This document shows, in pieces, positions 5,032-53,721 of a stretch of 64,000 nucleotides of DNA. This stretch comes from an uncultured Pseudomonadales bacterium (GTDB taxonomy: Bacteria > Patescibacteriota > Microgenomatia > UBA1400 > PJMF01): assembly GCA_964574595.1 (NCBI GenBank), contig CAZNOF010000001.1:9586-73585 (forward strand), read 5' to 3'. Position 1 is the first letter of the stretch. The number at the start of each line of letters is the position of its first letter. The notes under the pieces are model-generated. The model made no database searches and was not told the DNA's origin. It was given only the letters and a program-made list of their open reading frames with translations. A program made the position numbers and the translations under genes.

Positions 5032-6894
5032 GTGGTTATGCATCTGCCTAGTGATTATAACCTCTATCTGGAGCAACTGGTACCAGTTCTGACTGAAGTT
5101 GCGGCCGCTGAAAGTTGGTCCGCCAAAGATTTAGCGCGAATCTTAAACAAATATCCAAAGCCAGATTCAGGCATTTTCTCTAAAGAGATATTAGTTCAAG
5201 CCTATCGAAAGCTAGCCGGAACCCATGGGTTACCTCCTTATAAAGATGAAGTCATGCAACGCCTCCAAATGAAGCCAACCAGAACCGGCTCTGGAGTGAC
5301 GCCAGTGACAGTTCTGACGAAGCCGTTCCCCTGTCCTGGCAAATGCATCTTTTGTCCAAATGACATCCGCATGCCAAAAAGTTACTTGTCAGATGAGCCA
5401 GGAGCTCAGCGAGCAGAACGGAACTCTTTTGACCCATACCTGCAAACCTATAACCGACTTCAAGCCTTTCAAAATATTGGTCACCAAATTGATAAAGTCG
5501 AGCTGATTATTTTGGGTGGCACTTGGTCATATTACCCAGAGGCTTATCAAATTTGGTTCATCAAAGAATGCTTCCGGGCGCTCAATGACTATGGTGAAAA
5601 AATTGACGACCGGGAACGGATTGAAAACTACTACCATGAAATGCGTGAAAGACTGAAAGAGGTTGAGACTGCCATTAAACATCGACCAGTGCCTGGAAAT
5701 AATCCCGTCATAAATAAGCAGGCAATGCAAGCTTACCAAGTGCATGGTGAAGAGCTTTCCAAGAGCTACAACCAGACTGTTTCTGAAATGTATGTGGCTC
5801 CAGAGAAAATTGGTGGATTTGATCAATATCAAACTGCTGATTGGAGCTCTCTTGAAGCAGAGCAACATCGAAATGAAACTGCCATCTCTCGAAATGTGGG
5901 TTTAGTCATCGAGACTCGCCCAGATAATATTTCAGAAGCTGAGGTCTTGAGAATTCGCCGACTGGGATGCACCAAAACGCAAATCGGATTTCAAAGTTTG
6001 AACGATGCGGTGCTGGACTTGAATAAACGTGGTCACGATGTGGCTGCTACCAGAAGAGCCGTCAAGTTGCTCAGGCAAGCCGGTTTCAAGATTCATGCTC
6101 ATTGGATGCCGAATCTATATGGTTCAAGTGTGGAAATTGATAAGGGTGATTACGATATTCTGTTCAACGATCTTGATTTCAAGCCAGATGAATTGAAGAT
6201 TTATCCTTGCTCACTGATTGAAAGTGCTGAGCTGATGCAGTATTACCAACGTGGTGAGTGGAAGCCTTACTCTGAGCCAGAGCTGCTAGATATCTTGACA
6301 TACTGTTTGACGCATACCCCGCCATTTTGTCGACTGACCCGTGTCATCCGTGATATTCCATCTACGGACATTGTGGTGGGAAACAAAAAAACCAACTTCC
6401 GAGAGATCGCTGAGAAGAAACTGACTGAATTGGGTGAAAAGAGCTCGGATATTCGAGCAAGAGAAATTCGTAAGCAAGAGGTCTCTGCTGAAGATCTGGA
6501 ACTAAACTTGGTGAAGTATGAGACAAGTGTCAGTCATGAAATTTTCCTCCAGTACATTGTCAAAGAATCAGGTAAGCCACCTGAACAGTCAAAAATCGCT
6601 GCCTTTTTACGATTAAGTATTCCCACAGTTCCCAACTTTATTGATGAACTAAAAGATGGCGCGATTATTCGAGAGATTCACGTTTACGGACAAACAGTCG
6701 GAATTGGCAAGAAGACTGAAGGCAAAGCCCAACACCTGGGTTTAGGACAGAAACTGATAGATGAAGCAGTTAAATTAACAAAAGAAGCCGGCCTGCGGAA
6801 GTTAGCTGTGATTTCAGCCATTGGTACTCGCGAGTATTATCGCAAACGGGGCTTCACTAAAGGTTCTCTTTATCAATTTCTGGACTGGGAATAA
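5032..6894 (+). CDS. Elp3-family radical SAM/GNAT protein (tRNA U34 cm5 modification enzyme homolog)
   Basis: Radical-SAM cluster motif CPGKCIFCPN; 620 aa; C-terminal GNAT-like fold (QHLGLGQKLIDEA...YYRKRGF). GTG at 5032 or ATG at 5038 as start. Confidence 0.85.
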   Translation: MVMHLPSDYNLYLEQLVPVLTEVAAAESWSAKDLARILNKYPKPDSGIFSKEILVQAYRKLAGTHGLPPYKDEVMQRLQMKPTRTGSGVTPVTVLTKPFPCPGKCIFCPNDIRMPKSYLSDEPGAQRAERNSFDPYLQTYNRLQAFQNIGHQIDKVELIILGGTWSYYPEAYQIWFIKECFRALNDYGEKIDDRERIENYYHEMRERLKEVETAIKHRPVPGNNPVINKQAMQAYQVHGEELSKSYNQTVSEMYVAPEKIGGFDQYQTADWSSLEAEQHRNETAISRNVGLVIETRPDNISEAEVLRIRRLGCTKTQIGFQSLNDAVLDLNKRGHDVAATRRAVKLLRQAGFKIHAHWMPNLYGSSVEIDKGDYDILFNDLDFKPDELKIYPCSLIESAELMQYYQRGEWKPYSEPELLDILTYCLTHTPPFCRLTRVIRDIPSTDIVVGNKKTNFREIAEKKLTELGEKSSDIRAREIRKQEVSAEDLELNLVKYETSVSHEIFLQYIVKESGKPPEQSKIAAFLRLSIPTVPNFIDELKDGAIIREIHVYGQTVGIGKKTEGKAQHLGLGQKLIDEAVKLTKEAGLRKLAVISAIGTREYYRKRGFTKGSLYQFLDWE

Positions 6895-9611: not shown

Positions 9612-10370
9612 ATGCTATCTATAAAAGAACTCACCAAATTAGAAAAGAAAAGTTTTCGCGATGAAACAGGTGTCTTCCTAATTGAAGGAAAAAAAGTCTT
9701 TGAAGAGGCGCGAAAAGCAAAACTGGTAATGGATCAGGTTCTCGTCACGGAAAAGTTTTTATTCGAAAATCGCAACTTTCTGTATGAACATCAGCTTACT
9801 TTTAGAGATGTGATTAGTATTAGTCAACACAATGCTGAACGATTAGCCGGCACTGTGACCACAACAGGTCTATTTGCTGTTGTTCAAAAACCCAAAGTTA
9901 CTTTGGCAGAAGTACAGAAAACATCATTTGTAGCAGTACTTGAAGATATTCGTGATCCAGGTAATCTCGGTACCATGATTCGAACTGCGGACTGGTTTGG
10001 CGTCAACTCAATTATTTTAAGTAGTTCTGGTGTGGATTTGTACAACAGTAAAGTAATCAGAGCTACCATGGGTTCACTTTTTCACTTAACTATTTATACC
10101 TCGGATGATCTAGTAAATGACTTGAAGACGCTTAAACAAGATGGCTTTCGAATGGTAGTGACAAGACCGGAAGGTACAACACCACTTCAGTCAATTAAAC
10201 TGGATAAAAGTTGTATCATTTTTGGAAATGAATCCTTAGGCACATCCGCAGAAGTTGATGAGTTGGCTGATGATGTTTTTACTATTCCAAAATACGGAGA
10301 TGCTGAATCACTGAATGTAGGTGTGGCGTTTGGAATTACCCTAAACCAACTCCTCCAGGCAAAGGTTTAA
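9612..10370 (+). CDS. TrmH/SpoU-family RNA 2'-O-methyltransferase
   Basis: SPOUT motifs DPGNLGTMIRTADWFG, IFGNESLG, ESLNVGVAFGI. Confidence 0.8.
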   Translation: MLSIKELTKLEKKSFRDETGVFLIEGKKVFEEARKAKLVMDQVLVTEKFLFENRNFLYEHQLTFRDVISISQHNAERLAGTVTTTGLFAVVQKPKVTLAEVQKTSFVAVLEDIRDPGNLGTMIRTADWFGVNSIILSSSGVDLYNSKVIRATMGSLFHLTIYTSDDLVNDLKTLKQDGFRMVVTRPEGTTPLQSIKLDKSCIIFGNESLGTSAEVDELADDVFTIPKYGDAESLNVGVAFGITLNQLLQAKV

Positions 10371-11379
10371 GACTTTCTGGATTTGGTGATTCAGGTGGCT
10401 GAATCACTATGTTAGTGCACAGAATCGAATAGAACTGTTCTTTTAATTCTTCCGTAACAATCATCTCTATAATTCCCTCGTTTGGTTGACCGTAGTAGAT
10501 AACTGCACCCAGTGGAGCGACCAGCGCTAAAATAACGGCTCCTAAGTCCTCCTCACCATGAACTCTGACATGGAACGGTGCTGTAAAAATTGTTTCTCGG
10601 CTTTTAAATAAACTCTCTTGTGTTTCCATTAAATGCTGAACAAATTCTCGACTAATTTGGCCCGCTGGATTTGCGACGCCTTTGTCTTCCTTCACTTGGG
10701 CCAAATTTGGTGACTGAAACATTTGTCGTTGATTGAATCCGTCGTAGACACCGATTTGATACGGCCAATTATTTTGAATGAAAGTCTCTAAGACCATATC
10801 GCCAACAACGTACGTGTAAAGGTAGTGATTGGTGGGTTGAAGCACAACTTGGCCGCGCTTTTCCCTAAAGAATGCTTTCTGCTGATCATTTAACATGACG
10901 CCTTGTTCCAAACACAGTGAATACACTTGACCTTGGCGGTTCACCAGACCCTGGCGAATTCTAGTTGATGAAAGATACTCATTTTTTTGATCACGGAGGA
11001 GTTCACAGACTTCGATTGGCAAGGCGAGCAACTGCAGGTTTACCCGACATTGATTAATAAAGTCGCCGCCAGCCTTGGTCAACTCGGTCACAATAATGGC
11101 TTCTACTGGTGAGCCTTGGAGGGTAGGGCCGCAAGGATCTGCTAAGGGAAAAACTTTTGAGGGAATTTGTTCTTGAGCTAAAAATTGAGTGACATTGGCA
11201 GAGCGCGTTTCAAAAGGTTCGATCATTTGAAAAAACTTTTTGGTTCGTGTCAACTCATTTGTGGTCACTCCGACCCAAATTTCGTCAGCAAGACTGGCCG
11301 CAAACTTCAGAAAAGCCTGATGTCCAGCATGCATGTGGTCAAACGTGCCACCCATTCCAACGATTTTATATTTTTTCAT
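10336..11379 (-). CDS. cytidylyltransferase-like protein (archaeal-type PPAT-like N-domain) fused to a ~190-aa C-terminal domain, possibly DUF359/GTP-dependent dephospho-CoA kinase-like
   Basis: N-terminal GGTFDHMHAGH (HxGH) and ISSTRIR nucleotidyltransferase motifs. C-terminal half has GDMV...VYDG..R and HGEEDL motifs that I recall from DUF359 (unverified). Start overlaps the upstream gene's stop (TAATG). Confidence 0.5.
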   Translation of the reverse strand: MKKYKIVGMGGTFDHMHAGHQAFLKFAASLADEIWVGVTTNELTRTKKFFQMIEPFETRSANVTQFLAQEQIPSKVFPLADPCGPTLQGSPVEAIIVTELTKAGGDFINQCRVNLQLLALPIEVCELLRDQKNEYLSSTRIRQGLVNRQGQVYSLCLEQGVMLNDQQKAFFREKRGQVVLQPTNHYLYTYVVGDMVLETFIQNNWPYQIGVYDGFNQRQMFQSPNLAQVKEDKGVANPAGQISREFVQHLMETQESLFKSRETIFTAPFHVRVHGEEDLGAVILALVAPLGAVIYYGQPNEGIIEMIVTEELKEQFYSILCTNIVIQPPESPNPESLKPLPGGVGLG

Positions 11380-13316
11380 TAGCCTGCTCCTCCGCCACCG
11401 CCGCCACCACCACCTCCTCCGCCTCCAGATGATCCACCTGAAGACCCAACCCCAGCGGCGCCGTAGCTAGAGGTTACAGCAGTTGAAAGAGAATTTAAAG
11501 CGGTACCTACAGATTCAAAGCTACTGCCAAATGACTGTGCCCCGTTTCCAGAACTGGAGAAGCCGCCCCAATACCCAACGAGCATTGCTTGATCGGCGGC
11601 AGAAAATTGCACGGGTAGCTGAGACAGTGCCTTCATCGAAATGCCCAGCACAGTGCCATACACTAAATATTTTTCCCAGAGAATAATCGAGTCGATCGGG
11701 TAATTTTTTGTTGATTGATAATCGTCCATGTGCTTTTTAAATGCGTTCCACTCAGCAGCTTGTTGATTGCCACTGTCAGTTCGTTTTTCACCGTTCAGAT
11801 AGATGAGGATTGCTAATATAAAAGCAACCACACCTAATCCCACTCCCAAAAATCCAGCTAGTACTAATACTCCATTGCCATATTCTCCACCCAATCCTAC
11901 AAAGACGAAATTGACCCAGCCGATCAGCATTCCGACTACGCCTAAAAGCAACCGAGCTTTCGTTTCGTGAGCTGTTTTGTCTAAGAGGTGAGTCTCTAGG
12001 TTTGTTTGCAGAGTAAGCTCACTGAGATCTTTGAAGAATTGATTGGAAGAGACAGTATTACTTTTGCAGTAGCTGACAATGTCTTTTAAGGCCACTACCG
12101 TCTTCTCTTTTCCTTCGAGAGAGTGTTGAGTTGCGCCAACATTGTCAAACAAGAAACTGAGCACTTCACTTTCAAAGGCATTTGGTTTGTACTTGGGCTT
12201 GGGTTGGGCTTCTAAGTAATAGGCATATTCTTTAAAGATAAGTCCTTCTGGTTGATCAGAACGCAAGATTTTCAGTACACGATGTTGAACGAGCGAAAGC
12301 ACCAGGGCGGTGAATGATTTGGGGGTTAACTCACTACTAAGGGAGAGTAGTTGCTCGACCTGTGGAGGAGGTAGTTCACTAGGTGGATCCCACAATGTTC
12401 CAGAGAAATTTACGGCTGGTGGAGTGGGTTCTTTGTGAATAGCAAAGAAGCGCCGCACTTCTTTGATGATAAGCCAGAACAATCCAATTGAGGCAATGAC
12501 CGACACAGTAGTCAGGAACCAGCTAGTGAGTCTTCTTTGTGCTTTGAGAGCCTTGGTGTCATTAATAAAGCCTTGTTCTTGCTGATTAATTTGGGTTTCA
12601 GTTAAACTACCGGCACTTCCTTCAGGGAAAAGTGATTTGGGCAACAAGATTCTACCCTCAAAGTAGGTCTTTGAAGGGAGATTTGGGACGGAAAAAGTGA
12701 CCAGAGTGGCAGTTGGAATCGAGACGGTGCCATCAAGTGGGCCATGCAGCCAGGCTTTTATTTGATCATTAGGAATGCCTGCTGGCAAATTGACAGAAAC
12801 AGAGACCCTCCCCTGACTGTGATCCCAATCATTTCCTATGAATTGCCAATAGAGTTCTGAGTTGTCTGGATCAACCGTAACTGCATTTTGAACTGTGTAA
12901 CTCGTGGTAAAGGTTTTCACTTCCGAGTGAGCGCTGTAAAACCATTTGAGATAATACTGACTGCCTTGATCTTCCACATAGAAAGCGTTTGTCTCTTCTT
13001 GTCCGGGTCTCACTTGGGTATAGCAGACGGTTTCATCACAAACTTTGAAGTTTTTGACAATGTACGGCTCTGTCCGGCCGGGGTTTTTGGTGGTGTCAGG
13101 GTCCTTGAGAATCGTTTGGTAGGCAAAGGTGAAGCTGCCGGAGAAATCGTACGTTCGCTTCTCCTCCACTGTCATGCTGCCATCAGTGTGCAAGGTGGCG
13201 TTGGTGGTTACAGATGTGATTTCATAAGACTTGGAGGCGGCGGACACAGAGTTGGGAAAAATCAGTCCCAGGCTAAGAGTCAATAAAAAAGCGCTCAAAA
13301 TCAGAACTTTCTTCAT
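11379..13316 (-). CDS. DUF2207-like membrane protein with C-terminal poly-Gly tail
   Basis: Signal peptide, large extracytoplasmic N-domain, several TM helices, Ser/Gly tail ending GGGGGGGGGGGGGAG. Architecture typical of DUF2207. Confidence 0.65.
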   Translation of the reverse strand: MKKVLILSAFLLTLSLGLIFPNSVSAASKSYEITSVTTNATLHTDGSMTVEEKRTYDFSGSFTFAYQTILKDPDTTKNPGRTEPYIVKNFKVCDETVCYTQVRPGQEETNAFYVEDQGSQYYLKWFYSAHSEVKTFTTSYTVQNAVTVDPDNSELYWQFIGNDWDHSQGRVSVSVNLPAGIPNDQIKAWLHGPLDGTVSIPTATLVTFSVPNLPSKTYFEGRILLPKSLFPEGSAGSLTETQINQQEQGFINDTKALKAQRRLTSWFLTTVSVIASIGLFWLIIKEVRRFFAIHKEPTPPAVNFSGTLWDPPSELPPPQVEQLLSLSSELTPKSFTALVLSLVQHRVLKILRSDQPEGLIFKEYAYYLEAQPKPKYKPNAFESEVLSFLFDNVGATQHSLEGKEKTVVALKDIVSYCKSNTVSSNQFFKDLSELTLQTNLETHLLDKTAHETKARLLLGVVGMLIGWVNFVFVGLGGEYGNGVLVLAGFLGVGLGVVAFILAILIYLNGEKRTDSGNQQAAEWNAFKKHMDDYQSTKNYPIDSIILWEKYLVYGTVLGISMKALSQLPVQFSAADQAMLVGYWGGFSSSGNGAQSFGSSFESVGTALNSLSTAVTSSYGAAGVGSSGGSSGGGGGGGGGGGGGAG

Positions 13317-13379: not shown

Positions 13380-13461
13380 GCCGAAGTGGTGAAATGGTAG
13401 ACACGTCAGACTTAAAATCTGATGCCTTAACAGCGTGAGGGTTCGAGTCCCTCCTTCGGCA
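13380..13461 (+). tRNA. tRNA-Leu (anticodon TAA), long variable arm
   Basis: Acceptor GCCGAAG/CTTCGGC+A, anticodon loop CTTAAAA, long variable arm, T-loop TTCGAGT. Extended -10 TGATATAAT about 20 nt upstream. Confidence 0.8.
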
Positions 13462-13477
13462 CAAGAATATATAGAAA

Positions 13478-14075: not shown

Positions 14076-14149
14076 CGGGGAATAGCTCAGATGGCTAGAG
14101 CGCGCGGTTTGGGACCGCGAGGCCGCAGGTTCGAGTCCTGTTTCCCCGA
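14076..14149 (+). tRNA. tRNA-Pro (anticodon TGG)
   Basis: Acceptor CGGGGAA/TTCCCCG+A, D-arm GCTCAGATGGCTAGAGC, anticodon loop TTTGGGA, T-loop TTCGAGT. TATAATATGA -10 box at 14051. Confidence 0.85.
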
Positions 14150-14312
14150 CAATTTGAACTAATTGGCTAATACGAATTATCATTCTTAGTTCATTGAACT
14201 AGGAGTTTCTGAGTTTAGAGAGGTTTCAGTTCAGTTGAGTAGGACTCTTTTAACTCAAATCTCAAATAGTTCAGATTAATTGAGTTACCATTGAACTAAT
14301 GACTCAACGTCA

Positions 14313-15059
14313 TTAATTATGTAGTTTAGGTTCAATTTCCTTTATTGACCTGACAAAACTTGAAAGTCTAGAAAGCCTTTTCTGGGATAATTCTAGATCC
14401 GAAAAACTGGTTATTGTACTCACAATGTTTTTGATACTGCCATGGGTTTTATCATACTTTAATCCTACATTTCCAAATAATCTTGCCAAAGATTCATATG
14501 GGTGAAAAATTGAACTTAGATCGTCTACTGTTATATCCATCTTCAGCTCATCCGAAATATATTTCTCATTGAGCTTATCGCTGAGTATTGGAAATAGGTG
14601 ATAAAAAGCTAAAAACCACGCTTCAATCTCCATCATGGCAAAATGAAAATCAATCTTTTCTTGTTTTATTTTTGCAATTTCAGAGAGAATACTATTTTCT
14701 ATTAGAGACGTAACTGTTGGGTTGACTACGCCAGGTGGAAAGCGTCTTTTTTTTAATTCATTTTTATATGTTTCGCAATAAATGTCCCTAAGGCAGATGA
14801 CCTTTTCATATCGTTCAAAGAAAGATGAGGAGCTATTCTTAAGCATGCTTACTAGCTTGTTATCACCATCTGCTATGAATATTCGAAAAGTTATGAGTGG
14901 TTCGGCTCCTTCATATTTGTGAACATAAAAATCTGATTTGAAATTTTGAAATTTGAGAGGGTCGATAATTATATTAATATTTTTATATAAGATGAGAATG
15001 ATATGGTGAATAAAAATAGCTTCAGCATAGCCTTCTACACAAATAGCAATGGTGCGCAT
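14313..15059 (-). CDS. Toprim-like protein (DUF4276/OLD-family-like), second gene of a candidate ATPase-nuclease defense pair
   Basis: N-terminal ICVEGYAE (VEGxxE Toprim Glu motif), FIADGDN (DxD motif), later MEIEAWFLA. 16-nt gap to the upstream ATPase gene. ~30% GC. Confidence 0.5.
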   Translation of the reverse strand: MRTIAICVEGYAEAIFIHHIILILYKNINIIIDPLKFQNFKSDFYVHKYEGAEPLITFRIFIADGDNKLVSMLKNSSSSFFERYEKVICLRDIYCETYKNELKKRRFPPGVVNPTVTSLIENSILSEIAKIKQEKIDFHFAMMEIEAWFLAFYHLFPILSDKLNEKYISDELKMDITVDDLSSIFHPYESLARLFGNVGLKYDKTHGSIKNIVSTITSFSDLELSQKRLSRLSSFVRSIKEIEPKLHN

Positions 15060-15075
15060 AGAGATTTAATCCAGT

Positions 15076-16182
15076 TTATTTTAGGAAATCGGAACTAAAG
15101 AGATCAAAGTTATTTAATCCCGTGAGCTCGAACTCTTCGAAAATTTTTGGTTTATTTTCATTACTAAAACTCGAGACCGTATCACCATGTCTCGCCAAGA
15201 TTACAATCTCATCTAATGAAACGGCATTTGCTAGGAATTGATCATTTGTAGTAGCTACAATCTGTATGTCTGCAGTTTCTGTTTTTACTTTTAAGAGCTT
15301 GGCTAATCTGTTTGCTCTTTCGAAATCTAAATCGGAGCCCAGATCGTCTATGAAAATAGATATTGTTCCTTTTTCAATTCTTGCCTTCAATAAATATTGA
15401 ATAGCCATTAGCAGTGATAAGACACCATACATACCTGAAGACATCTCCGGCTGAGGTATAGGATATTTAACGTCTTTTTCCTTGATGAATAATACCTTCG
15501 GTGAAAAGGCGGCATGTACTATACTTTGCAATAGGTTCTTACTTATTTTTTCAATATTAAAACCCACAAAGTTTAAATCATCTATTATTTTATTTATATC
15601 TTCGCTTTCTAATTTATCCCAGTATTCAGAAATGAGTTGTAACGAAGGCAAATCTGGTAATTTTGCTGTATTCATAAATAAGGAAATGCTACTGGGATTA
15701 AGGCCTGAAGAAAAACTATAGGACACTGAGTTTTCAGCCCATTCATACAAATTCTCAAAAAAAGGATATTCCTTTTCATCTCTTCTAATATGGAGAACTA
15801 ATTTATCTTTTGGGGGGTTGATAATAATGAAATCTTTAATAATTTCTGAAAAAAGCTTTGCTTCAGATACATTTCTAACTAATTTTGTTTTCCCATTAAC
15901 AACTATTTTCTCTTCCTCGATAATTCCATCTTTAATGGAACAACAATATTTATATATGTCATCTCCATTGGAAAAATCTGCGTCCCATTCTCCATTTGAG
16001 AATTTAGTTTGATTTGTTATTAACTGAGTTAATCCTGTGATTAGGCGATGGAATTTGCTTTTCCCAGTAGAATTTTTACCCATGATCAAAGAAAGATTTT
16101 TAAGGAAAGTATCTTCTAATTTCCACGCATTCTGTTTTGGCGTGTTAATATTTTCTTGGTACCTGATTCGCTTTAATTTCAT
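15076..16182 (-). CDS. ABC-type (AAA_21/AAA_15-like) ATPase, first gene of the candidate defense pair
   Basis: Walker A GKNSTGKS, signature-like PQPEMSSGM, Walker B ISIFIDDLGSDLD, H-loop IVATTND. Very AT-rich. Confidence 0.7.
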   Translation of the reverse strand: MKLKRIRYQENINTPKQNAWKLEDTFLKNLSLIMGKNSTGKSKFHRLITGLTQLITNQTKFSNGEWDADFSNGDDIYKYCCSIKDGIIEEEKIVVNGKTKLVRNVSEAKLFSEIIKDFIIINPPKDKLVLHIRRDEKEYPFFENLYEWAENSVSYSFSSGLNPSSISLFMNTAKLPDLPSLQLISEYWDKLESEDINKIIDDLNFVGFNIEKISKNLLQSIVHAAFSPKVLFIKEKDVKYPIPQPEMSSGMYGVLSLLMAIQYLLKARIEKGTISIFIDDLGSDLDFERANRLAKLLKVKTETADIQIVATTNDQFLANAVSLDEIVILARHGDTVSSFSNENKPKIFEEFELTGLNNFDLFSSDFLK

Positions 16183-23772: not shown

Positions 23773-26244
23773 ATGAAAAAGAAGAGCTCTATACATGCAG
23801 GTAGTCTAGTCGCACTATTTGGTGTTGTTATCATGACTTTGGTAACTGTGCTTTTCTCCACGGGTTTCTTCCCTGCTCCGGCTAAGATTTTGTCAATGTT
23901 ATTGCCTCATGCTGCTGCTCCAGTTAAAACAATTAATGTTCTCGAATTACGTTACCTGCCTTTGGATTATTCAGTTCAAGATGCCAAAACGACTGCTGTT
24001 TCAAGTTTGTTAGTGACAGACATCGTTGACGCTTCTCGTGCTAAAGGATACAAAAATACGGCAGCTACACCAGCAGTTCAACCAGTTATTAAGTATGTTT
24101 TAAAACGTGCTTCAGCGCCACCATACACCCAGGGCAACTTTGAAGTCTGGTATGACTCTCTCAATACTATTTTGACTCAAGATCATGATTTACCTGGTGG
24201 CATGAACCTCTGTGACTACATCGTGGCAAATAATATCGATCAAGTCTGGGGGTGGTTTGACGTTCGTGCTGCAGGGAATGGTCCGATTGGCGGGTACAAT
24301 CAAGAATTTACTCGATTCTGGTCATATAACGTTTTACCAGTTCAACAAGGATACCAACCACTGTGCGGTGGCAAACGGTCATTTATTTTCTTAGGGTTAG
24401 ATCAGAACGCTGGTGTCGATAATGCCTTACACAGCTTTGGTCACTCCATGGAATCCATGTTAACTTTAGTACAGGGTCACGACTTATTCTGGACGAAATG
24501 GGCTGGAATAACTGGTGCTGAAGGTGGAACCGCTACCACCTGTGGTGACGTGCACTTTCCTCCTAACGGTGCGGCAGACTATGACTATGTGAATACACGT
24601 AATGTAACTACAAGTTGTGAGGATTGGAAGCCAGATGGAACTGGCACACAAAAACGTTTCACTTGTGCCGAATGGGGTTGTTCTCAAGAAGGTTACATGA
24701 AGTGGTGGTTACAAAACATGCCTAATGCAAACAATGGCTTAACCTATGCTGGCCGAGCTATTCCAAATTGGTGGGATTTGCTTGGCGATACGGATAATGC
24801 CATCGGCCAAGCTGCTTACAGAGGTGAGTACCTGACATCAGATTTCCTAGACTCCGCTCGTCCGTCCTACCTAGATTCTACCTCCAAGGCCACTCAAGCC
24901 AGTGGTGCTTCATTGACTATGACGCAAACCATTAGTGGTACGAATAGATTATTAATGGTGGCGGCTTCTTATCGATCTCCTGCCAAAGCCCAAACCGATG
25001 GTGGTAGTTCTGGAACGGGTACCAAAGAACAGATTACCGGAGTGAAATGGGGTACGACTGCTTTAACTCGAGTCAACCGTACCATTACAGATGAGTACAC
25101 GACTGAGCTCTGGTACTTAGTCGCTCCAGCCACTGGTTCCAATACCATTACCGTTAGCTTTGTTGGTAATGTTCAAGACCAAAACCTGTCTGGTGCCTCA
25201 TTCACCGGAGTAAACCAAACGACTCCATTTGCGAATGCAGCTGGATCATCTCTTACTGGTGGATCGGCAACTCCGACCATTACCGTGCCAACAACAGCTT
25301 CACAAGTGCTATTTGGAGTCACTTCAATGTACACGGGTTCAAATACCTTAACAGTCTCTGGAGCAACCAGGGGTGTGTTTGGATTAAAGACAATGAATGT
25401 GATTGGAAAAGGTGCTGTGGCCGCTGGTGGGGCAACTGCTACTCTCTCTTGGAGTGGTACATCTGCCTGGCCATGGTCAATTAGTGCTGTGGCGATCAAT
25501 TTAACTAGTGCTCCAGCAGTCACGCCAACTCCGAGCCCAAGTTTGGTGCCAACACCAAGCCCAACTCCAACCCCTGTGGCGACTCCGATTCCAACGCCTG
25601 TGCCAAGTCCAGTTCCAACTCCTACACCGACATCCGGGCTGCCAACTACACCAACTGTCGATTTAAAGATAAATGGACAAGATAGAGTGTATACACAAGC
25701 TGGTTTGAGAGGTTCAACGATTGGAAATATAACTCTCACTTGGAAAACTGTAGGTGCAACTAGTTGTAAAGCTCTTGGCTCATGGACAGGTGCCAAACCT
25801 GTGAATGGATCGGCAACTGTGGCATTTGTGACAGGGACTGAAAAACCTAATACCAAATACTACGCACTCCAATGTGTCGGGGCTGGTGGAGCAACATGGT
25901 ACGATGTTGCCTTCGTGGTAGTTCCACAAATCAATACATTACTTCCAGTCATGGAAGCAAAAATGTTTGTCAATGGCTTTGATGACACGATGATGCCTGC
26001 TGGCAGCGGTATTGTAGGCGCCGGAACTCAACAGAAGCTATACATCAAGAGCGGATCAGCTCCAGTCTTGTCCTATATATCATATGGACAGACATGCACA
26101 TCTCCTTGGATTGCCTCTAATCCAAAAGGCGCTATGACTACTGGCGTAACTCAGCCAGCTATCACCAAGACCACAACATACAGTATGACTTGTGATCAAA
26201 TTAAGAAGACTGTCACGTACTCAGTGTCTGCGAATATTAGATAG
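23773..26244 (+). CDS. large secreted/membrane-anchored protein with Pro/Thr-rich linker
   Basis: N-terminal signal/anchor helix, 823 aa. PT linker TPTPSPSLVPTPSPTPTPVATPIPTPVPSPVPTPTPT separates a ~600-aa N-domain from a C-terminal beta-rich domain. Confidence 0.6.
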   Translation: MKKKSSIHAGSLVALFGVVIMTLVTVLFSTGFFPAPAKILSMLLPHAAAPVKTINVLELRYLPLDYSVQDAKTTAVSSLLVTDIVDASRAKGYKNTAATPAVQPVIKYVLKRASAPPYTQGNFEVWYDSLNTILTQDHDLPGGMNLCDYIVANNIDQVWGWFDVRAAGNGPIGGYNQEFTRFWSYNVLPVQQGYQPLCGGKRSFIFLGLDQNAGVDNALHSFGHSMESMLTLVQGHDLFWTKWAGITGAEGGTATTCGDVHFPPNGAADYDYVNTRNVTTSCEDWKPDGTGTQKRFTCAEWGCSQEGYMKWWLQNMPNANNGLTYAGRAIPNWWDLLGDTDNAIGQAAYRGEYLTSDFLDSARPSYLDSTSKATQASGASLTMTQTISGTNRLLMVAASYRSPAKAQTDGGSSGTGTKEQITGVKWGTTALTRVNRTITDEYTTELWYLVAPATGSNTITVSFVGNVQDQNLSGASFTGVNQTTPFANAAGSSLTGGSATPTITVPTTASQVLFGVTSMYTGSNTLTVSGATRGVFGLKTMNVIGKGAVAAGGATATLSWSGTSAWPWSISAVAINLTSAPAVTPTPSPSLVPTPSPTPTPVATPIPTPVPSPVPTPTPTSGLPTTPTVDLKINGQDRVYTQAGLRGSTIGNITLTWKTVGATSCKALGSWTGAKPVNGSATVAFVTGTEKPNTKYYALQCVGAGGATWYDVAFVVVPQINTLLPVMEAKMFVNGFDDTMMPAGSGIVGAGTQQKLYIKSGSAPVLSYISYGQTCTSPWIASNPKGAMTTGVTQPAITKTTTYSMTCDQIKKTVTYSVSANIR

Positions 26245-28992: not shown

Positions 28993-29840
28993 AGACTGTC
29001 TATACGACTGAACAACTTCAACACAAAGCAACGCTGATTCGCCAAGATATTATTGAGATGCTTTTAAAAGCTGGCTCTGGTCACGTAGCTGGGCCACTGG
29101 GCATGGCCGACATTTTTGCTGTCCTCTACTTCTCCGTTTTGCGGCATGATCCACAAAAACCACATTGGGCAGATCGGGATCGATTAGTCGTTTCAAATGG
29201 TCATATATGTCCGGTGATGTATGCGGCATTAGCAGAAGCTGGGTACTTCCCTAAGCACTGGCTGAGTACCTTGCGCCAAATTGACAGCAAGTTGCAGGGT
29301 CATCCAAACCATTTGGATACTCCTGGAGTGGAAACGAGTAGCGGACCACTGGGTCAGGGAATTTCTCAAGCCGTGGGTATGGCTCTGGCTGGGAAACTTG
29401 ATCAGAAAAATTATCAAGTGTACTGTGTGATGAGTGATGGTGAGCACAATGAGGGACAAGTTTGGGAAGCATTGATGTCAGCTAGTAAATATAAACTTCA
29501 CAACTTAGCCGTCATCATCGATCGAAATAACATTCAAATCGATGGGTATACAGAAAATATCATGCCGCTTGAGTCATTAAAAGCGAAATACGAAGCCTTT
29601 AACTGGCATGTCCTAGAGATTGATGGGCATAATATTGAAGCCATAATCAACGCCTGTGACGAGGCAAAAGCCATTTTTGAAAAACCAGTGGCAATCATCG
29701 CCCATACCATCCCAGGTAAAGGGGTGGACTTCATGCAGTGGAAGCCTGAATGGCATGGAAAAGCGCCAAACAAGGTGGAGGCTGAAGTTGCACTGAAAGA
29801 GTTACGAAGTATGGCAGGTAAAATTAGCCGGCCTGACTAG
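28989..29840 (+). CDS. transketolase, N-terminal (TPP-binding) subunit of a split enzyme
   Basis: GHVAGPLGMADIFAVLY, DRDRLVVSNGH, GPLGQGISQAVGMA TPP motifs. 283 aa. No C-terminal subunit adjacent. Confidence 0.8.
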   Translation: MKTVYTTEQLQHKATLIRQDIIEMLLKAGSGHVAGPLGMADIFAVLYFSVLRHDPQKPHWADRDRLVVSNGHICPVMYAALAEAGYFPKHWLSTLRQIDSKLQGHPNHLDTPGVETSSGPLGQGISQAVGMALAGKLDQKNYQVYCVMSDGEHNEGQVWEALMSASKYKLHNLAVIIDRNNIQIDGYTENIMPLESLKAKYEAFNWHVLEIDGHNIEAIINACDEAKAIFEKPVAIIAHTIPGKGVDFMQWKPEWHGKAPNKVEAEVALKELRSMAGKISRPD

Positions 29841-30909
29841 TCAAATACTTGTGCAGTCGCTCTGGGTACAAAATTCTGTCAGGTAATTCGATATATTTTA
29901 AGTCATCTAGACCCACCTTGGCGGTGTAAAGTTTCTCGACTTCCCCACCCTCATCAAGAAATTTTTTCACTTGGAGCATCCCTTCGTAGTAGAGCGCTTC
30001 CTTGCCAAAACAGCCTGGCATTTCTGTGTCTGCGAAGCCTCGTTTGAGACGGAACGTTCTTTGAAAAGCCAATTCAGGAGTAAAGCCATTGGACAGTAAA
30101 TACTCATAGACTGTCTTAAACGCGCCAGTTCTGGCGATATTACCAGCCAGATACTTTAGAGCATGATGTTTCAAATTAATCTCACCAGCAGTTGAGCAGT
30201 AGTCGCCTAAAAAAGAGGCCAGTCCTTCTTCCGTTTTAATGTAGAACGGTAGCGGTTTTTTGAGAAGCGGATTGGGTTGTTGTTCCGCATTTACCCCGCG
30301 GATAACATGGCCATCAATTTCATGAGCCAGCATGGCGTCAAAGTTCGTGAAGTCCCAATTAAATATCTTGCCAATTAATAACTTTTTCTGAGCGGCTTTG
30401 ACGCGAAAGTAAAAATCAGTTTGTTCAGAGAGTTCTACCGTCCAATCGGAGATTCCGTACGAATGAAGATACTCGGTGATGCCAGTCACAATTTCAGCCG
30501 AGGTTTTCGTCTCGGAAGATTCAAAAGGTAATGGGGATGCAGCGTCAATTTTTGCTTGATCAATATACGTTTGGTCAAATGTGCATTGATAGAGCTGACA
30601 ACTATTCATGCCAAAATCTTCATTGCCACGATTGAGCAGCATTAAAATGGTGAGTTCTTGTTCCTGTTTCTTTCGATATAAAATCCATGACTCAAGATCT
30701 GTGTGGGTTGTGGCCTCTTTTGATTTCAAAAATGCATGCAGTTTTTCTTCGAGGAGTTTTACCGGAATTTCCGGATACTCAATTTGGGGATTTTGGTTGG
30801 GATTGGCTAAAAATTTCTCGCGTGCTTCCACTAAATTCAAAGGTGTTAGCCAATGGTTTGTTTTTAAAAGCGCATCGACTTCGTGTATCAGCTCTTGAAT
30901 TTGGGACAT
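29824..30909 (-). CDS. DUF1704-like protein (QEGLA-motif family)
   Basis: HEIDGH (HExxH-like) and EEGLASF resembling the QEGLA signature. 361 aa. Confidence 0.6.
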   Translation of the reverse strand: MSQIQELIHEVDALLKTNHWLTPLNLVEAREKFLANPNQNPQIEYPEIPVKLLEEKLHAFLKSKEATTHTDLESWILYRKKQEQELTILMLLNRGNEDFGMNSCQLYQCTFDQTYIDQAKIDAASPLPFESSETKTSAEIVTGITEYLHSYGISDWTVELSEQTDFYFRVKAAQKKLLIGKIFNWDFTNFDAMLAHEIDGHVIRGVNAEQQPNPLLKKPLPFYIKTEEGLASFLGDYCSTAGEINLKHHALKYLAGNIARTGAFKTVYEYLLSNGFTPELAFQRTFRLKRGFADTEMPGCFGKEALYYEGMLQVKKFLDEGGEVEKLYTAKVGLDDLKYIELPDRILYPERLHKYLTSQAG

Positions 30910-33320: not shown

Positions 33321-34808
33321 TTATTGAACTAATTTTTGCTTGGCTGAATCAATCATTCTTGCTGCTTGCTCATAGTTTACTACCCAACCCGTTTGGCAGA
33401 CACTCTTGTAAAAAAAGTTTTTAAGCATCCTCCCTTGAGCGTCATAAACTTCAGGGTAGCATCGGTACTTGATGATGTTATTTGAATAAGACTGTAGCTG
33501 GCTCTCTGCTAAAGCAAGATACTCGGCTTTTCCAGTTTGTTGATAAAGCAGGACCAGCAGCTTTATATACTCCATGCCCCAGTGACTCCAGATGGCTGTG
33601 CCCCCATACTCAGGAACGAAGAACCTGACCAAAGAGTACTCTCTTTCTGGACGGTCTTCTGTTTGATATTTTAAGCCAAATGGTTGGTCAATTTTGTTCT
33701 GCCGAATATACGATACACTTCTTTCAAAGTAAGGTAACTCAACAGGGTCTTGTGGATTGAGAAATCCCGTTTGTAAAACGATGAGCCAGTCTGAGGAGTA
33801 ATAGCTATTTTTAATGGCTGCAGGAGAAACATCTTCCAAAAAATAGCCCTTATCATCAATCCAATACTGATTAAGAATGTTTTGTCTTAGTTCTTCTAGA
33901 GCGGCGGCATTTTTGGGCACAATTCCCTCTTCTTGGGCAAGTTGTTGTGTCTTCCAAAGAATTACATTGTCATAAAAGGCGCTCTGTCTTTTGGCAATGT
34001 CCTTTGTTCCAGAAAGTAAAATATCAGATTTAATGAGGCCAGTCTTCGAATCTACAACTGATTGAATATACGCATTGTAGTGCCTGAGTAATGTTGTCTT
34101 GTAATCTTGAAGCAACTGTTGTGCGGCTTGTTGTGTTTGTAAAGAAGTTGTCTGGGTGTGGGGGAACGGATATCTAGTCAGAAGCTCATCACTGCTTTGC
34201 ATTGTCCGAATGGCGTAGAGCAGGCTAAAAAGTGAATCAGACGGAGGTTGGTAAATATTTAATAGCGTGACGGAGTGTTGGCCGACAGGCACAATTGTGG
34301 TGGAAAGTGCTGATGACTGAGAGAATACCTCAAGAGCATAGGCTGTGGTCTGTAAATAAATTTTTTGTCTGTTGAGCCAATCTTCTTGATCTATTGCCGT
34401 TCGAGGATCTAAGAGTGTGGCGTAAAAAATACCTAGTGATCGAATATAGAGTGTGCTGAAGTGGTCACCTGAAATCAGGTAGAGATGATCCGGGTTAAAT
34501 CGAATCTGATGTATTTCGCGAATGATATCAGGAAGAGTTGTGCTCTGTGTTTTTTTGTTTCGTTCGTAGACATTGCCAAGTATGTGATAAGCAGATTTCA
34601 CTTTACTAAAGGATCTGTAAATGATGTTTGATCTGACAAATAGATCTACGTCTTTCACTAAGACGAGCTGCCCGCTGGAGTCTGTTCTTGTGGTAAAGGC
34701 AGTTTGGACAGCAGAGTATCTGGTGAAGGGGTTGGTTAAGTACGAAGCTATTGCTACTAAAATGCAGACGACCGTAGTGGTGAGAAAACCTTTCCAGCGT
34801 TTTTTCAT
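33321..34808 (-). CDS. membrane-anchored hypothetical protein (~495 aa)
   Basis: N-terminal TM anchor (MKKRWKGFLTTTVVCILVAIASYL) then a large extracytoplasmic domain. Start chosen at an internal Met. Confidence 0.45.
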   Translation of the reverse strand: MKKRWKGFLTTTVVCILVAIASYLTNPFTRYSAVQTAFTTRTDSSGQLVLVKDVDLFVRSNIIYRSFSKVKSAYHILGNVYERNKKTQSTTLPDIIREIHQIRFNPDHLYLISGDHFSTLYIRSLGIFYATLLDPRTAIDQEDWLNRQKIYLQTTAYALEVFSQSSALSTTIVPVGQHSVTLLNIYQPPSDSLFSLLYAIRTMQSSDELLTRYPFPHTQTTSLQTQQAAQQLLQDYKTTLLRHYNAYIQSVVDSKTGLIKSDILLSGTKDIAKRQSAFYDNVILWKTQQLAQEEGIVPKNAAALEELRQNILNQYWIDDKGYFLEDVSPAAIKNSYYSSDWLIVLQTGFLNPQDPVELPYFERSVSYIRQNKIDQPFGLKYQTEDRPEREYSLVRFFVPEYGGTAIWSHWGMEYIKLLVLLYQQTGKAEYLALAESQLQSYSNNIIKYRCYPEVYDAQGRMLKNFFYKSVCQTGWVVNYEQAARMIDSAKQKLVQ

Positions 34809-34948
34809 TCTTTTCTCACGAAAGAACGTAGCGTGGACCCGGGCACGATGAGAGTGAGATGGCGGTAACATACAGGTAATTGTAACCGTTTTTTGGTTAG
34901 GTACAGAAGAGAATGTTTCCGTGTTAGAATGCCTGAGCCAGGTGGATT

Positions 34949-42088: not shown

Positions 42089-42805
42089 ATGAAGAGTATT
42101 TATAGTATTGGAACATTGCAACGAATCCTCGATCACTGGGGCGTGGGAAAAATCTTTGATGCTACGTACTTCAGTTTTGAAGGACGAGCAATTTGGCGCC
42201 AGTGGATTGAAACAAACCAAGGCGAATTTGAACTGTACTCATATCCAGATGCTTCTGACCCGTATTATGAAAAGAGGTTGACTGAATATTTTGAAACGCA
42301 TCGAGGTCAAATTAACCCAAAATTAGTTCACAGTTTTGACCGATATCACAAGCTTGTGAGGATGAGTACCAAACAGCAAATTTCAGCTAAGCAAGCAATG
42401 ACCGAATTTGAAGCCTTAAAAACACTGTCGATCGTCAAGGCGTTTAGAGTGTATGGATCAATTATTCAAATTCAATTTTCTAAAGATGCTGTCATTTCAT
42501 CTTACGCACATTGGGTTTTGCAAAAAAATACTGACGCAAAAACAGAAATTCTTGTTGACTCTTGGACTGCTTCAATAGAGGAAATGGATGCAGCGATGAC
42601 CGAATTTGAGAATAGCCAAGCACCATTTGAGAAGGCAGTAATTAGCGCTGACCAAGTAGAACTTTTTTTCTCTAAAAAGTATTTGCTTGTTCTTCAAAAA
42701 GAATCAACATTCCCTGCCATGACTCTTCATATTGATGGGCGTCAAAATTGGATGAATATTTTTGACGAGCGAAAAATCTTTTATAAAAAAGATCTTATCT
42801 CCTGA
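42089..42805 (+). CDS. hypothetical protein
   Basis: 238-aa ORF. No family recognised. Confidence 0.45.
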   Translation: MKSIYSIGTLQRILDHWGVGKIFDATYFSFEGRAIWRQWIETNQGEFELYSYPDASDPYYEKRLTEYFETHRGQINPKLVHSFDRYHKLVRMSTKQQISAKQAMTEFEALKTLSIVKAFRVYGSIIQIQFSKDAVISSYAHWVLQKNTDAKTEILVDSWTASIEEMDAAMTEFENSQAPFEKAVISADQVELFFSKKYLLVLQKESTFPAMTLHIDGRQNWMNIFDERKIFYKKDLIS

Positions 42806-44045
42806 ATAAATTTCTGAATGAGTCGATCAATCTTTGGAAGAAATTACCGTTACTCCCAGGTGTTGGGTTTGGCAATGAATTACTGCCCGGAACTGTACTG
42901 GCTTTAGGAGTAGCTTGAATACAAGCTGCTGAATTGGATTCAACCACATAACCACGGTCAGTATCTGATTGACCACAGCCGATATTTAAACTCCAGCGAG
43001 AGCAAATGTTTCCTAGTCCAAGCGTAATTGATTGTTGTGGTGCTAACACCTTACTTCCACTTTGATTCAAGTTGGTCTTGCTGAAGGTGTTCAGTGACCA
43101 ATTAAATTGTTGTGCAGAACTGCCAGTGTTTTGAACTTGGAACATACCAGTTGTTGTCCATTTTGTAGAGTCTGGATAAGGCACAACTTTAAAGTTTTTC
43201 ATAGCACATTGAATTTGTGTAGACGGAATGGTTGGACTTGGTTTCACTACAACTGGACTTGGTGTTGGTCTCATACTTACTACGGGTGTTGGACTAGCAA
43301 CTGGTCGGGTTGATGGACTTACAGATGGAGTGACCACCACAATTGGGCTAGCAACTGGAGAGACTCTTGGTGAGGCTATTGGCGAAGCAATTGGTGAAGC
43401 CACTGGTGTTGGCGTTGGAACTACAACCACTGGGCTGGCGATTGGAGAAGCTACGGTCGTGGGAGACGGTGATGGAGATGCTGGATTTGCAAAAGTGAAA
43501 ACAGCCGTAGGTGTAACTCCCAGCAAATTCTGACCAGTCACACTCTGCAAAATCTTAGAATAGTTCTCATCAACAGCAATGCTCATGGTTCCGGAAGCAG
43601 GCACCGTGAATCGCAATGTAGCGAGTGGGACGACTGCATTGTTAGGGTTAAAGGGTGTTTGTGGATCTTTTGTAATAAAGGCTAAAGTGAGTTTTTTGCC
43701 GCCATTGGCATCGACAATTGTTGAAGCCACAGAATTCAATGCAGAAAAAGTTTGAGGTTCAACTGTGATCGCCGGTACATTGCCAGAAATGTTGGCAATT
43801 AATTGAAAGCCATCCACGTTGGAGGCTCCGGTGCCACTTGCACTAATAGTGATAGCTTCAACAGTCCCAGGTTTCAATGTAGTTCCAGATTGACTCTGAA
43901 AAGTGAACTGAGCTGTCCCTGTTAACGTTGAAGCTTGCTGCCTCAGATCAAAATTATTTTTTAAAAAGTAAGCGCCCAGCATGGTGGCGGCAACCATGAC
44001 AATCAACGAAAGTGCTGTGAGTTTTTGACGATATGTTGTGTTCAT
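42795..44045 (-). CDS. secreted protein with Pro/Ser/Val-rich linker
   Basis: Signal/anchor helix. ~60-aa SP(I/V)ASP repeat linker. Cys-containing C-terminal domain. Confidence 0.55.
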   Translation of the reverse strand: MNTTYRQKLTALSLIVMVAATMLGAYFLKNNFDLRQQASTLTGTAQFTFQSQSGTTLKPGTVEAITISASGTGASNVDGFQLIANISGNVPAITVEPQTFSALNSVASTIVDANGGKKLTLAFITKDPQTPFNPNNAVVPLATLRFTVPASGTMSIAVDENYSKILQSVTGQNLLGVTPTAVFTFANPASPSPSPTTVASPIASPVVVVPTPTPVASPIASPIASPRVSPVASPIVVVTPSVSPSTRPVASPTPVVSMRPTPSPVVVKPSPTIPSTQIQCAMKNFKVVPYPDSTKWTTTGMFQVQNTGSSAQQFNWSLNTFSKTNLNQSGSKVLAPQQSITLGLGNICSRWSLNIGCGQSDTDRGYVVESNSAACIQATPKASTVPGSNSLPNPTPGSNGNFFQRLIDSFRNLFRR

Positions 44046-52806: not shown

Positions 52807-53721
52807 TTAAGAGTAACTCTCCTTTAATAGCTCAATCACTTGTTTCAAACTCAATGAAGTGGGTCGTTGGTTTCGATGTTTTTTTGAGCCGTTGAGTAAC
52901 ATCTTACCACTTGGGTGATAGTACCAAGTCCCAGCAGGATCGAGCTTGAGAATTTTTTCATGAACCACTTTCAAATCTAGGTCAGCGTCTGGTCTGGCTT
53001 TAATTCGAACTTCTCCACCCGTGGGATCTTTTCTAACTACGACCATGTATCCAGATTTTTGAGCGAACTTAATGACCTGGTCATTTTTACTTTCAATTCC
53101 TAGAGCTTTGCCAACTTTCAAAGTGAATTCAGTACCAGCCGAAATGGAGTCACGAGCTTGGAAAGTTTCTTTGAGTGCTGCATATGCTGATTCAAAACAG
53201 TGTATGCCAAATTGTAATTGAGAATCATCGTCATGTAGACCAAGGGACTCAAATCCACCAATTAATTCATGAATCATAAAACAGTATTTTGGTGAACCTG
53301 AATCGTCCCAATATATTTCCTCAAAGTGATCAATCTGTGTAACAAACTCCACAATATATTTGAGCGCTTCATCGTTTTTTAATTCTGGATGCAATCGGCA
53401 AGCGTAGTCGTAAGTAAGTGAGGTGGCACAGATACGTTCTCTACCCCGCTCTGGTTGATGATGGTCAAATTGGCCAAGACCAGTGTCAACATGGGTCACC
53501 TGGTGCATCTGGAAGCCTAGACGTTCTGCTTCGCTGGGGTTGATTTGGCTACCTGGGTCAACAAAAGATTCTTGGGAGTCGGCGTAGTGTTGGGAATCAA
53601 ATTGTTTTAATACCCATACCGAGCCGATGGCATCGAGGTCTGGGGCATGATGGGTCACGATGAGTCTTTTTTCCATGTCTTGATTATAGCAGTTTAGAAA
53701 GAATAGTTTTCTACGGTTCAT
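52807..53721 (-). CDS. DHH-family phosphoesterase (NrnA-like)
   Basis: Motif I HHAPDLDAIGS, motif III GQFDHHQ. 2-nt gap to the HIT gene. Confidence 0.65.
   Translation of the reverse strand: MNRRKLFFLNCYNQDMEKRLIVTHHAPDLDAIGSVWVLKQFDSQHYADSQESFVDPGSQINPSEAERLGFQMHQVTHVDTGLGQFDHHQPERGRERICATSLTYDYACRLHPELKNDEALKYIVEFVTQIDHFEEIYWDDSGSPKYCFMIHELIGGFESLGLHDDDSQLQFGIHCFESAYAALKETFQARDSISAGTEFTLKVGKALGIESKNDQVIKFAQKSGYMVVVRKDPTGGEVRIKARPDADLDLKVVHEKILKLDPAGTWYYHPSGKMLLNGSKKHRNQRPTSLSLKQVIELLKESYS

Follow-up and report, generated by a model that had tools for sequence, protein, structure and literature searches.

A fused archaeal-type phosphopantetheine adenylyltransferase and DUF359 kinase as a probable bifunctional CoA synthase in Patescibacteria

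The clue to the archaeal dephospho-CoA kinase (DPCK), the GTP-dependent enzyme TK1697, was provided by uncultured group II/III euryarchaeota in which phosphopantetheine adenylyltransferase (PPAT), an enzyme of coenzyme A (CoA) synthesis, is fused to a protein of arCOG04076 (Shimosaka, Makarova, Koonin, Atomi 2019, mBio, PMC6650551). PSI-BLAST searches with the archaeal DPCK family retrieved archaeal sequences only (Shimosaka et al. 2019, PMC6650551). Full-text literature searches found no paper that links the candidate phyla radiation (CPR, Patescibacteria) to DUF359 or to the archaeal DPCK. A 64-kb stretch of DNA (the window), which lies on a contig of at least 229,805 bp, was examined here, and a gene at positions 10336-11379 of its minus strand is described whose predicted product joins both archaeal-type domains in one bacterial protein. 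The fusion is a bacterial member of the published architecture and combines two characterised enzyme families; it is widespread within its lineage and entails no new mechanism.

The closest described relatives are the fusions of the Poseidoniales (marine group II/III), such as AIF21550.1, which share the order of domains, with PPAT at the N-terminus and DPCK at the C-terminus, and are of similar size (median 334 aa versus 322 aa). They are collinear with the bacterial fusions through the junction, and 27 positions, including all catalytic motifs, are invariant in both groups (alignment A2, 18 CPR and 15 archaeal fusions). Nevertheless, they show only ~24-30% identity to the CPR fusions, form a separate clade and reside in an archaeal host. 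One locus of the comparison (L079) is truly archaeal, as Cdc6/Orc1 is encoded on the same contig, and the relatives of its fusion number at least 920 at 90% clustering, under the names Poseidoniales, Thalassarchaeaceae or Thermoplasmatota. TK1697 itself (PDB 8jvc, 8jvf, 8jvg) shares with the C-terminal half the PF04019 family, the acidic residues of the GD, D and GEEDL motifs and the fold, a Rossmann variant resembling thiamine pyrophosphokinase, but it is a stand-alone protein with ~25% identity. TK1697 depends on GTP, and the bacterial fusion may, by analogy, use GTP as well. The archaeal PPATs (3do8, TK2128) and the PPAT domain of eukaryotic COASY have the HxGH and ISSTRIR motifs and the fold in common with the window protein, whose PPAT differs from the archaeal enzymes in being fused C-terminally to a DUF359 kinase and in having a bacterial host.

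COASY follows the same logic of placing the last two steps of CoA synthesis in one polypeptide and uses the same archaeal/eukaryotic type of PPAT. Its kinase, however, is of the P-loop CoaE type, whereas the kinase of the window protein belongs to the unrelated DUF359 family, and a Pfam scan of the fusion protein gave no match to the CoaE model PF01121. The kinase halves of the two proteins are thus analogous and not homologous. Bacterial CoaD and CoaE catalyse the same two reactions, and CoaD and the PPAT half are members of one nucleotidyltransferase superfamily, but the two enzymes are encoded by separate genes and CoaE is an unrelated P-loop kinase. Mycoplasmas, which are host-dependent and have reduced genomes, likewise keep the last two steps, but do so with separate genes of the CoaD and CoaE types (PMC8721197).

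The two domains of the fusion protein

The initial annotation, made from the letters of the sequence, had likened the N-terminal ~150 aa to archaeal PPAT and the C-terminal ~190 aa to DUF359, and both assignments are borne out by profile and structure searches. At the N-terminus, the Pfam model CTP_transf_like (PF01467) matched residues 10-143 with 44.6 bits (cutoff 21), and the NCBIfam model NF001985 'pantetheine-phosphate adenylyltransferase' matched residues 2-153 with 120.4 bits (cutoff 104). The bacterial CoaD model TIGR01510 reached 25.4 bits and stayed far below its cutoff of 103.3. In a sequence search of the PDB, the second of the two best matches was 3do8 (E 1.8e-11, query residues 7-152), a protein of Archaeoglobus fulgidus deposited as phosphopantetheine adenylyltransferase. 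Foldseek comparison of the AlphaFold model with this archaeal PPAT gave template modelling (TM) scores of 0.80-0.86 (E 2e-8), followed by bacterial PPATs with TM scores of ~0.63. As the archaeal model was matched above its cutoff, the CoaD model was not and the predicted fold is closer to 3do8 than to bacterial PPATs, the N-terminal half is assigned, on profile matches and predicted structure, to the archaeal type of PPAT and not to bacterial CoaD. Conservation of its motifs was assessed in an alignment of 240 relatives (120 CPR and 120 archaeal). Residues H17, G19 and H20 of the HxGH motif are present in 119 of 120 CPR and 116-117 of 120 archaeal sequences, the remainder being gaps, and in the second signature R142 is found in all 240 and S138 in 229 relatives.

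The C-terminal half matched the Pfam model DUF359 (PF04019) over residues 199-320 with 64.9 bits (cutoff 25, E 7e-18), and the top match of the PDB sequence search was 8jvc, the GTP-dependent DPCK of Thermococcus kodakarensis (E 3.9e-13 over residues 190-326). The structural match to 8jvc (TM 0.77, E 1e-11) comprises 181 aligned columns against a chain of 172 residues and spans the whole DPCK chain, beyond the Pfam core. The three aspartates that have been mutated in TK1697 are all kept. D48A and D67A mutants of TK1697 are strongly defective in vivo, and D125A has a milder effect with reduced growth (Shimosaka et al. 2019, PMC6650551). The counterparts of the first two residues, D194 and D213, are each present in 240 of 240 relatives; D278, the counterpart of the third, is present in 118 of 120 CPR relatives (the other two have gaps) and in all 120 archaeal ones. 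Apart from gaps in fragments, the GEEDL/YGQP core is invariant across the same set. This essential invariance of catalytic residues indicates that both active sites are under purifying selection, which counts against decay of a domain or a structural role only.

The AlphaFold2 model of the complete protein, calculated with 29 homologues, has a predicted local distance difference test (pLDDT) score of 91.1 and a predicted TM score (pTM) of 0.85, with only residues 331-347 disordered. Its best Foldseek matches are 8jvc and 3do8, the same two proteins that lead the PDB sequence search. On the grounds of sequence and model similarity to enzymes of known function, the fusion is probably a bifunctional CoA synthase built from two archaeal-type enzymes. 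The PPAT domain would adenylylate 4'-phosphopantetheine with ATP, yielding dephospho-CoA and pyrophosphate, and the abutting DUF359 domain would phosphorylate the 3'-OH of dephospho-CoA to give CoA, with GTP, as in TK1697, as the probable phosphate donor. The fusion of a candidate kinase to an enzyme whose product is the DPCK substrate follows the same logic by which the function of TK1697 was correctly predicted.

Distribution, descent and supply of CoA

Across GTDB, with each species represented by one genome, relatives of the fusion were found in at least 509 genomes, mostly of Patescibacteria; among the best 80, nearly every one belongs to this group (Paceibacteria, Levy-, Woese-, Roizman- and Beckwithbacteria). 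Homologues that carry a name are from the Patescibacteria group, Microgenomates, Beckwithbacteria and Yanofskybacteria. When only the DPCK half served as query, an exhaustive HMMER search returned 1,017 representatives of 50%-identity clusters; most of the top 150 are 300-360 aa long and matched in their C-terminal half, and are therefore fused as well. The expectation that an archaeal-route fusion would be unusual in a bacterium therefore stands in comparison with textbook bacteria, but does not hold within Patescibacteria, where the gene is found in hundreds of species representatives, and the architecture had already been published for archaea.

The window contains genes for SecA, BacA, bacterial tRNA synthetases and glycolytic enzymes. 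Because of the presence of SecA and BacA, and because homologues and gene order match named metagenome-assembled genomes of Patescibacteria, the host is assigned from its sequence to the bacteria of this group. Exact-sequence look-ups of the fusion (P0001) and of the adjacent RarA gene matched no record, so that the assignment draws on homologues and gene order. Many contigs with CAZ* or CAY* accessions (L005, L006, L008, L009, L013 and others) are titled 'uncultured Pseudomonadales bacterium' or 'uncultured Gammaproteobacteria bacterium', and these carry a CPR-type fusion and the gene order fusion-RarA-RecQ. As fusion sequences and gene order match CPR loci, such labels look unreliable.

The G+C content of the fusion gene (0.437) and of its third codon positions (0.405) equals that of neighbouring housekeeping genes, which argues for an old, native gene without recent transfer. 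CPR and archaeal fusions separate into two reciprocally exclusive clades with 100/100 bootstrap support, for the full length as well as for each domain alone, in trees of fused sequences. The CPR clade is the more diverse of the two, and this, together with the separation, fits an old, vertically inherited bacterial family. Recent horizontal transfer was rejected on base composition and clade structure, and both features mark the gene as native to Patescibacteria and anciently held there.

In the proposed route, the fusion would stand in for bacterial CoaD and CoaE, and its substrate 4'-phosphopantetheine would most likely be scavenged from a host or the environment. CPR genomes are generally reported to lack the upstream CoA pathway, and since no other CoA gene was seen in the DNA searched here either, scavenging is the most likely source. 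Such a replacement is consistent with a KEGG-type survey in which the CoA and pantothenate modules of Saccharibacteria were reported missing. A precedent is provided by mycoplasmas, in which PPAT and DPCK are the only steps kept and for which scavenging of 4'-phosphopantetheine was the route proposed (PMC8721197). By analogy with these cases, the chances that the fusion takes the place of CoaD and CoaE and has scavenged 4'-phosphopantetheine as its substrate are considered about even.

Several observations weigh against a fused CoA synthase fed by scavenging. The bacterial members of the family are known from sequence and predicted structure, and the preference for GTP over ATP, although probable, is carried over from TK1697 and is not read from the sequence. 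The Thermococcales GTP-dependent DPCK equivalog model NF041125 gave 59.1 bits, far from its cutoff of 300, so that orthology to TK1697 holds at the family level only. In addition, ~13 residues of the archaeal fusions, located between the ELKxPxGxL segment and the VGD motif, are missing in the clade of the window protein (columns ~201-220 of alignment A2, between residues 176 and 190 of the window protein), although some Microgenomatia fusions partly keep them. Domains of PanK, CoaBC, CoaD and CoaE were not detected by Pfam scans of the large open reading frames (ORFs) in the 64 kb, and tblastn with Escherichia coli queries found no CoaE, CoaD or CoaBC in 1.32 Mb comprising the window and related loci; both are weak negatives, and they are the answer to the check for bacterial coaD and coaE genes that the initial annotation had proposed. 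Finally, neither a transporter nor a gene related to CoA accompanies the fusion consistently in 82 loci, which leaves the scavenging route without direct support.

These points bear on the alternatives to different degrees. The fusion might be a redundant or accessory copy that serves as a back-up or in a specialised role next to ordinary CoaD and CoaE encoded elsewhere in the genome. The searches described above leave room for this, as the inspected 64 kb are a fraction of a contig that spans at least 229,805 bp and the negatives for CoaD and CoaE are weak. It is nevertheless judged unlikely: redundancy is hardly expected of a gene that is present almost everywhere, and with strong conservation, in a radiation known for minimal genomes, neither CoaD nor CoaE was found in the 1.32 Mb of related DNA, and KEGG-type surveys report CoA modules as missing in Saccharibacteria. 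Slightly lower still is the probability that only the PPAT half works as annotated and the DUF359 half has drifted towards another substrate, towards ATP dependence or into a regulatory or oligomerisation module. The missed Thermococcales cutoff, the ~13-residue deletion in the N-terminal part of the domain relative to archaeal fusions and the naming of these proteins by PGAP as PPAT only would suit such drift, and other substrates are conceivable for a family distantly related to thiamine pyrophosphokinases. Against it stand the invariance of the three tested aspartates and of the GEEDL/YGQP core, the full DPCK fold that is predicted with high confidence and the fusion to a partner that makes the DPCK substrate, the reasoning that proved correct for TK1697.

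That the N-terminal domain is another nucleotidyltransferase of a different cofactor pathway, for instance an FMN/NMN adenylyltransferase or a glycerol-3-phosphate cytidylyltransferase, is highly improbable. Weak matches to FAD_syn, NadR/NadD and TagD-type models do occur over the HxGH region, but they lie below their cutoffs and cover only ~20-50 residues around that motif, whereas the PPAT subfamily model is matched over the whole domain with 120 bits and the best structural matches are archaeal and then bacterial PPATs. The archaeal type of both domains could also raise the suspicion of an artefact, either an archaeal gene misassembled into or contaminating a bacterial bin or a sequencing error that merged two genes. 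This is effectively refuted by the same single ORF in the same bacterial gene order in independent NCBI, ENA, JGI and Logan assemblies, by the hundreds of CPR genomes that carry the fusion, by a base composition equal to that of neighbouring genes and by the placement of CPR sequences in a clade of their own apart from the archaeal one. The preferred reading thus remains that of a bifunctional CoA synthase native to Patescibacteria.

Gene boundaries, neighbourhood and other features of the window

The fusion ORF of 347 codons is intact and without interruption, and all motifs quoted in the initial annotation are found in it (GGTFDHMHAGH at residues 10-20, SSTRIR at 137-142, GDMV at 193-196, YDG..R at 212-218 and GEEDL at 275-279). 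Its start codon is supported by homologues with the same beginning, MKKYKI.GMGGTFDH. The minus-strand initiation context reads GGAGGAGCAGGCTAATG, in which the Shine-Dalgarno-like GGAGGA lies 9 nt 5' of the ATG, within the part of the upstream DUF2207 gene that encodes a poly-glycine tail. Within TAATG, the DUF2207 stop codon (11381-11379) overlaps the ATG of the fusion, and the translational coupling that had been noted earlier is thus present in the sequence, although as a lineage-specific trait. The C-terminus of the DUF2207 protein is a run of ~13 glycines, whose GGA GGA codons double as the Shine-Dalgarno element of the fusion gene. At the other end, the 3' end of the fusion gene overlaps that of the convergent SpoU gene by 35 nt, and the Pro/Gly-rich tail encoded in this part is confined to the closest relatives (P0002, P0003 and P0006).

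Table 1. Positions of the fusion gene, its domains and motifs, and adjoining genes in the window
Feature	Position	Strand	Basis
PPAT-DPCK fusion gene, complete, 347 aa	10336..11379	minus	ATG 11379-11377, stop 10338-10336; ORF list, two Pfam domains above cutoffs
N-terminal PPAT domain, archaeal/eukaryotic type, nucleotidyltransferase Rossmann fold, aa 1-153	10921..11379	minus	NF001985 and 3do8 matches, pLDDT ~96-98
HxGH nucleotide-binding motif H17-A-G-H20 within GGTFDHMHAGH	11320..11331	minus	invariant in alignments A1 and A2
SSTRIR motif, aa 137-142, second cytidylyl/adenylyltransferase family signature	10954..10971	minus	aligns with ISSTRIK of 3do8
C-terminal DUF359/arCOG04076 DPCK domain (predicted), aa 154-326, nearly no linker to PPAT	10402..10920	minus	PF04019 and 8jvc matches, pLDDT mostly > 88
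G193-D194; D194 corresponds to catalytic Asp48 of TK1697	10798..10803	minus	8jvc alignment, VTVGD vs YVVGD
D213, corresponds to catalytic Asp67 of TK1697	10741..10743	minus	8jvc alignment, LYD vs VYD
GEEDL motif, aa 275-279; D278 corresponds to Asp125 of TK1697	10543..10557	minus	reverse complement GGT GAG GAG GAC TTA
Pro/Gly-rich C-terminal tail, predicted disordered, aa 327-347	10339..10401	minus	pLDDT < 50 for residues 331-347; coding part overlaps SpoU 3' end
Translation-initiation context of the fusion	11377..11393	minus	GGAGGA 11393-11388, 9-nt spacer, TAATG
Upstream DUF2207 membrane-protein gene	11379..13316	minus	DUF2207 N- and C-terminal domains detected; context, outside CoA function
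Convergent SpoU/RlmB-type methyltransferase gene	9612-10370	plus	ORF list, Pfam

Close relatives from NCBI, ENA, JGI and Logan with 72-78% identity keep the order of DUF2207, fusion, SpoU (convergent and overlapping), RarA, RecQ and Elp3, and overlap or abutment of DUF2207 and the fusion is also seen in L081 and L083-L085. The relatives that have DUF2207 5' of the fusion are all at least 72% identical (L081-L085), and the gene is absent from this position in all 80 more distant loci. It was rejected as a functional partner, as it is present beside the fusion in the closest relatives only, and the lineage-specific coupling is uninformative on function. The order fusion-RarA-RecQ is more widely kept, in ~28 of 82 loci. 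Unbiased clustering of neighbours across the 82 loci yielded recurring housekeeping genes only (RarA, RecQ, Elp3, SBP_bac_1, VanW, TsaD, GreA and MFS) and no gene of the CoA pathway. SBP_bac_1 directly upstream (17 loci) and MFS nearby (8 loci) were considered as precursor transporters and rejected as too generic.

The Elp3-family protein of the window (5032-6894, plus strand, 620 aa) contains radical SAM and Radical_SAM_C domains and a weak GNAT C-terminus. It matches structures of the ELP3 family (E 2e-97), is encoded 4-5 kb from the fusion and is conserved in 18 related loci. Elp3 is a tRNA U34 modification enzyme of archaeal/eukaryotic type that uses acetyl-CoA. Conservation of a homologue from an acetyl-CoA-using family suggests that the cell plausibly needs CoA.

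Further features of the window lie outside CoA metabolism. At 14313-16182 (minus), beside tRNA-Leu (13380-13462) and tRNA-Pro (14076-14150), an AAA_21 ATPase (AbiEii/OLD-like, 368 aa) is encoded together with a 248-aa protein that has a sub-threshold match to DUF4276 (21.8 bits, cutoff 30.2); the pair resembles a small module of defence type that was inserted next to tRNA genes. A 361-aa protein at 29824-30909 (minus) matches the Pfam family MATCAP (microtubule-associated tyrosine carboxypeptidase) with 105.9 bits, a family name unexpected for a bacterium. The 1,422-aa protein encoded at 44093-48361 (minus) combines a PQQ_2/BamB-like beta-propeller with DUF5060, has no further annotation and may be one of the surface or adhesion proteins that are typical of episymbiotic CPR. 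At 62965-63963 (minus), a 332-aa ORF joins the C-terminal part of a class II (D/K/N) tRNA-synthetase core to an HD phosphohydrolase domain and could be an unusual fusion or an artefact of ORF boundaries. Finally, ORFs of 304-823 aa at 23773-26244 (plus) and at 33321-34871, 42795-44045 and 52807-53721 (minus) gave no Pfam match at E <= 1e-4, as is typical of CPR 'dark matter'.

Implications for Patescibacteria

Extended to the radiation as a whole, the analysis leads to a tentative proposal, held with somewhat less than even confidence, that a large part of Patescibacteria (at least Paceibacteria and Microgenomatia) may lack CoaD and CoaE and make CoA solely through an anciently acquired or shared PPAT-DPCK fusion acting on scavenged 4'-phosphopantetheine. 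Annotation pipelines give the bacterial fusions the name 'pantetheine-phosphate adenylyltransferase', as PGAP and IMG do, or 'DUF359 domain-containing protein', and PPAT-only naming hides the kinase half, so that CPR genomes can seem to be without the last step of CoA synthesis. If the proposal is true, metabolic reconstructions would wrongly score such bacteria as unable to finish CoA synthesis, and the deep split between the CPR and archaeal fusions would represent another old link between CPR and archaea. The DPCK family, which completed the archaeal CoA pathway in 2019 and was described as confined to archaea, is also standard, fused to PPAT, across this large radiation of bacteria. The fusion further suggests what these episymbionts need from outside, namely 4'-phosphopantetheine or a precursor, and what they can still make themselves.

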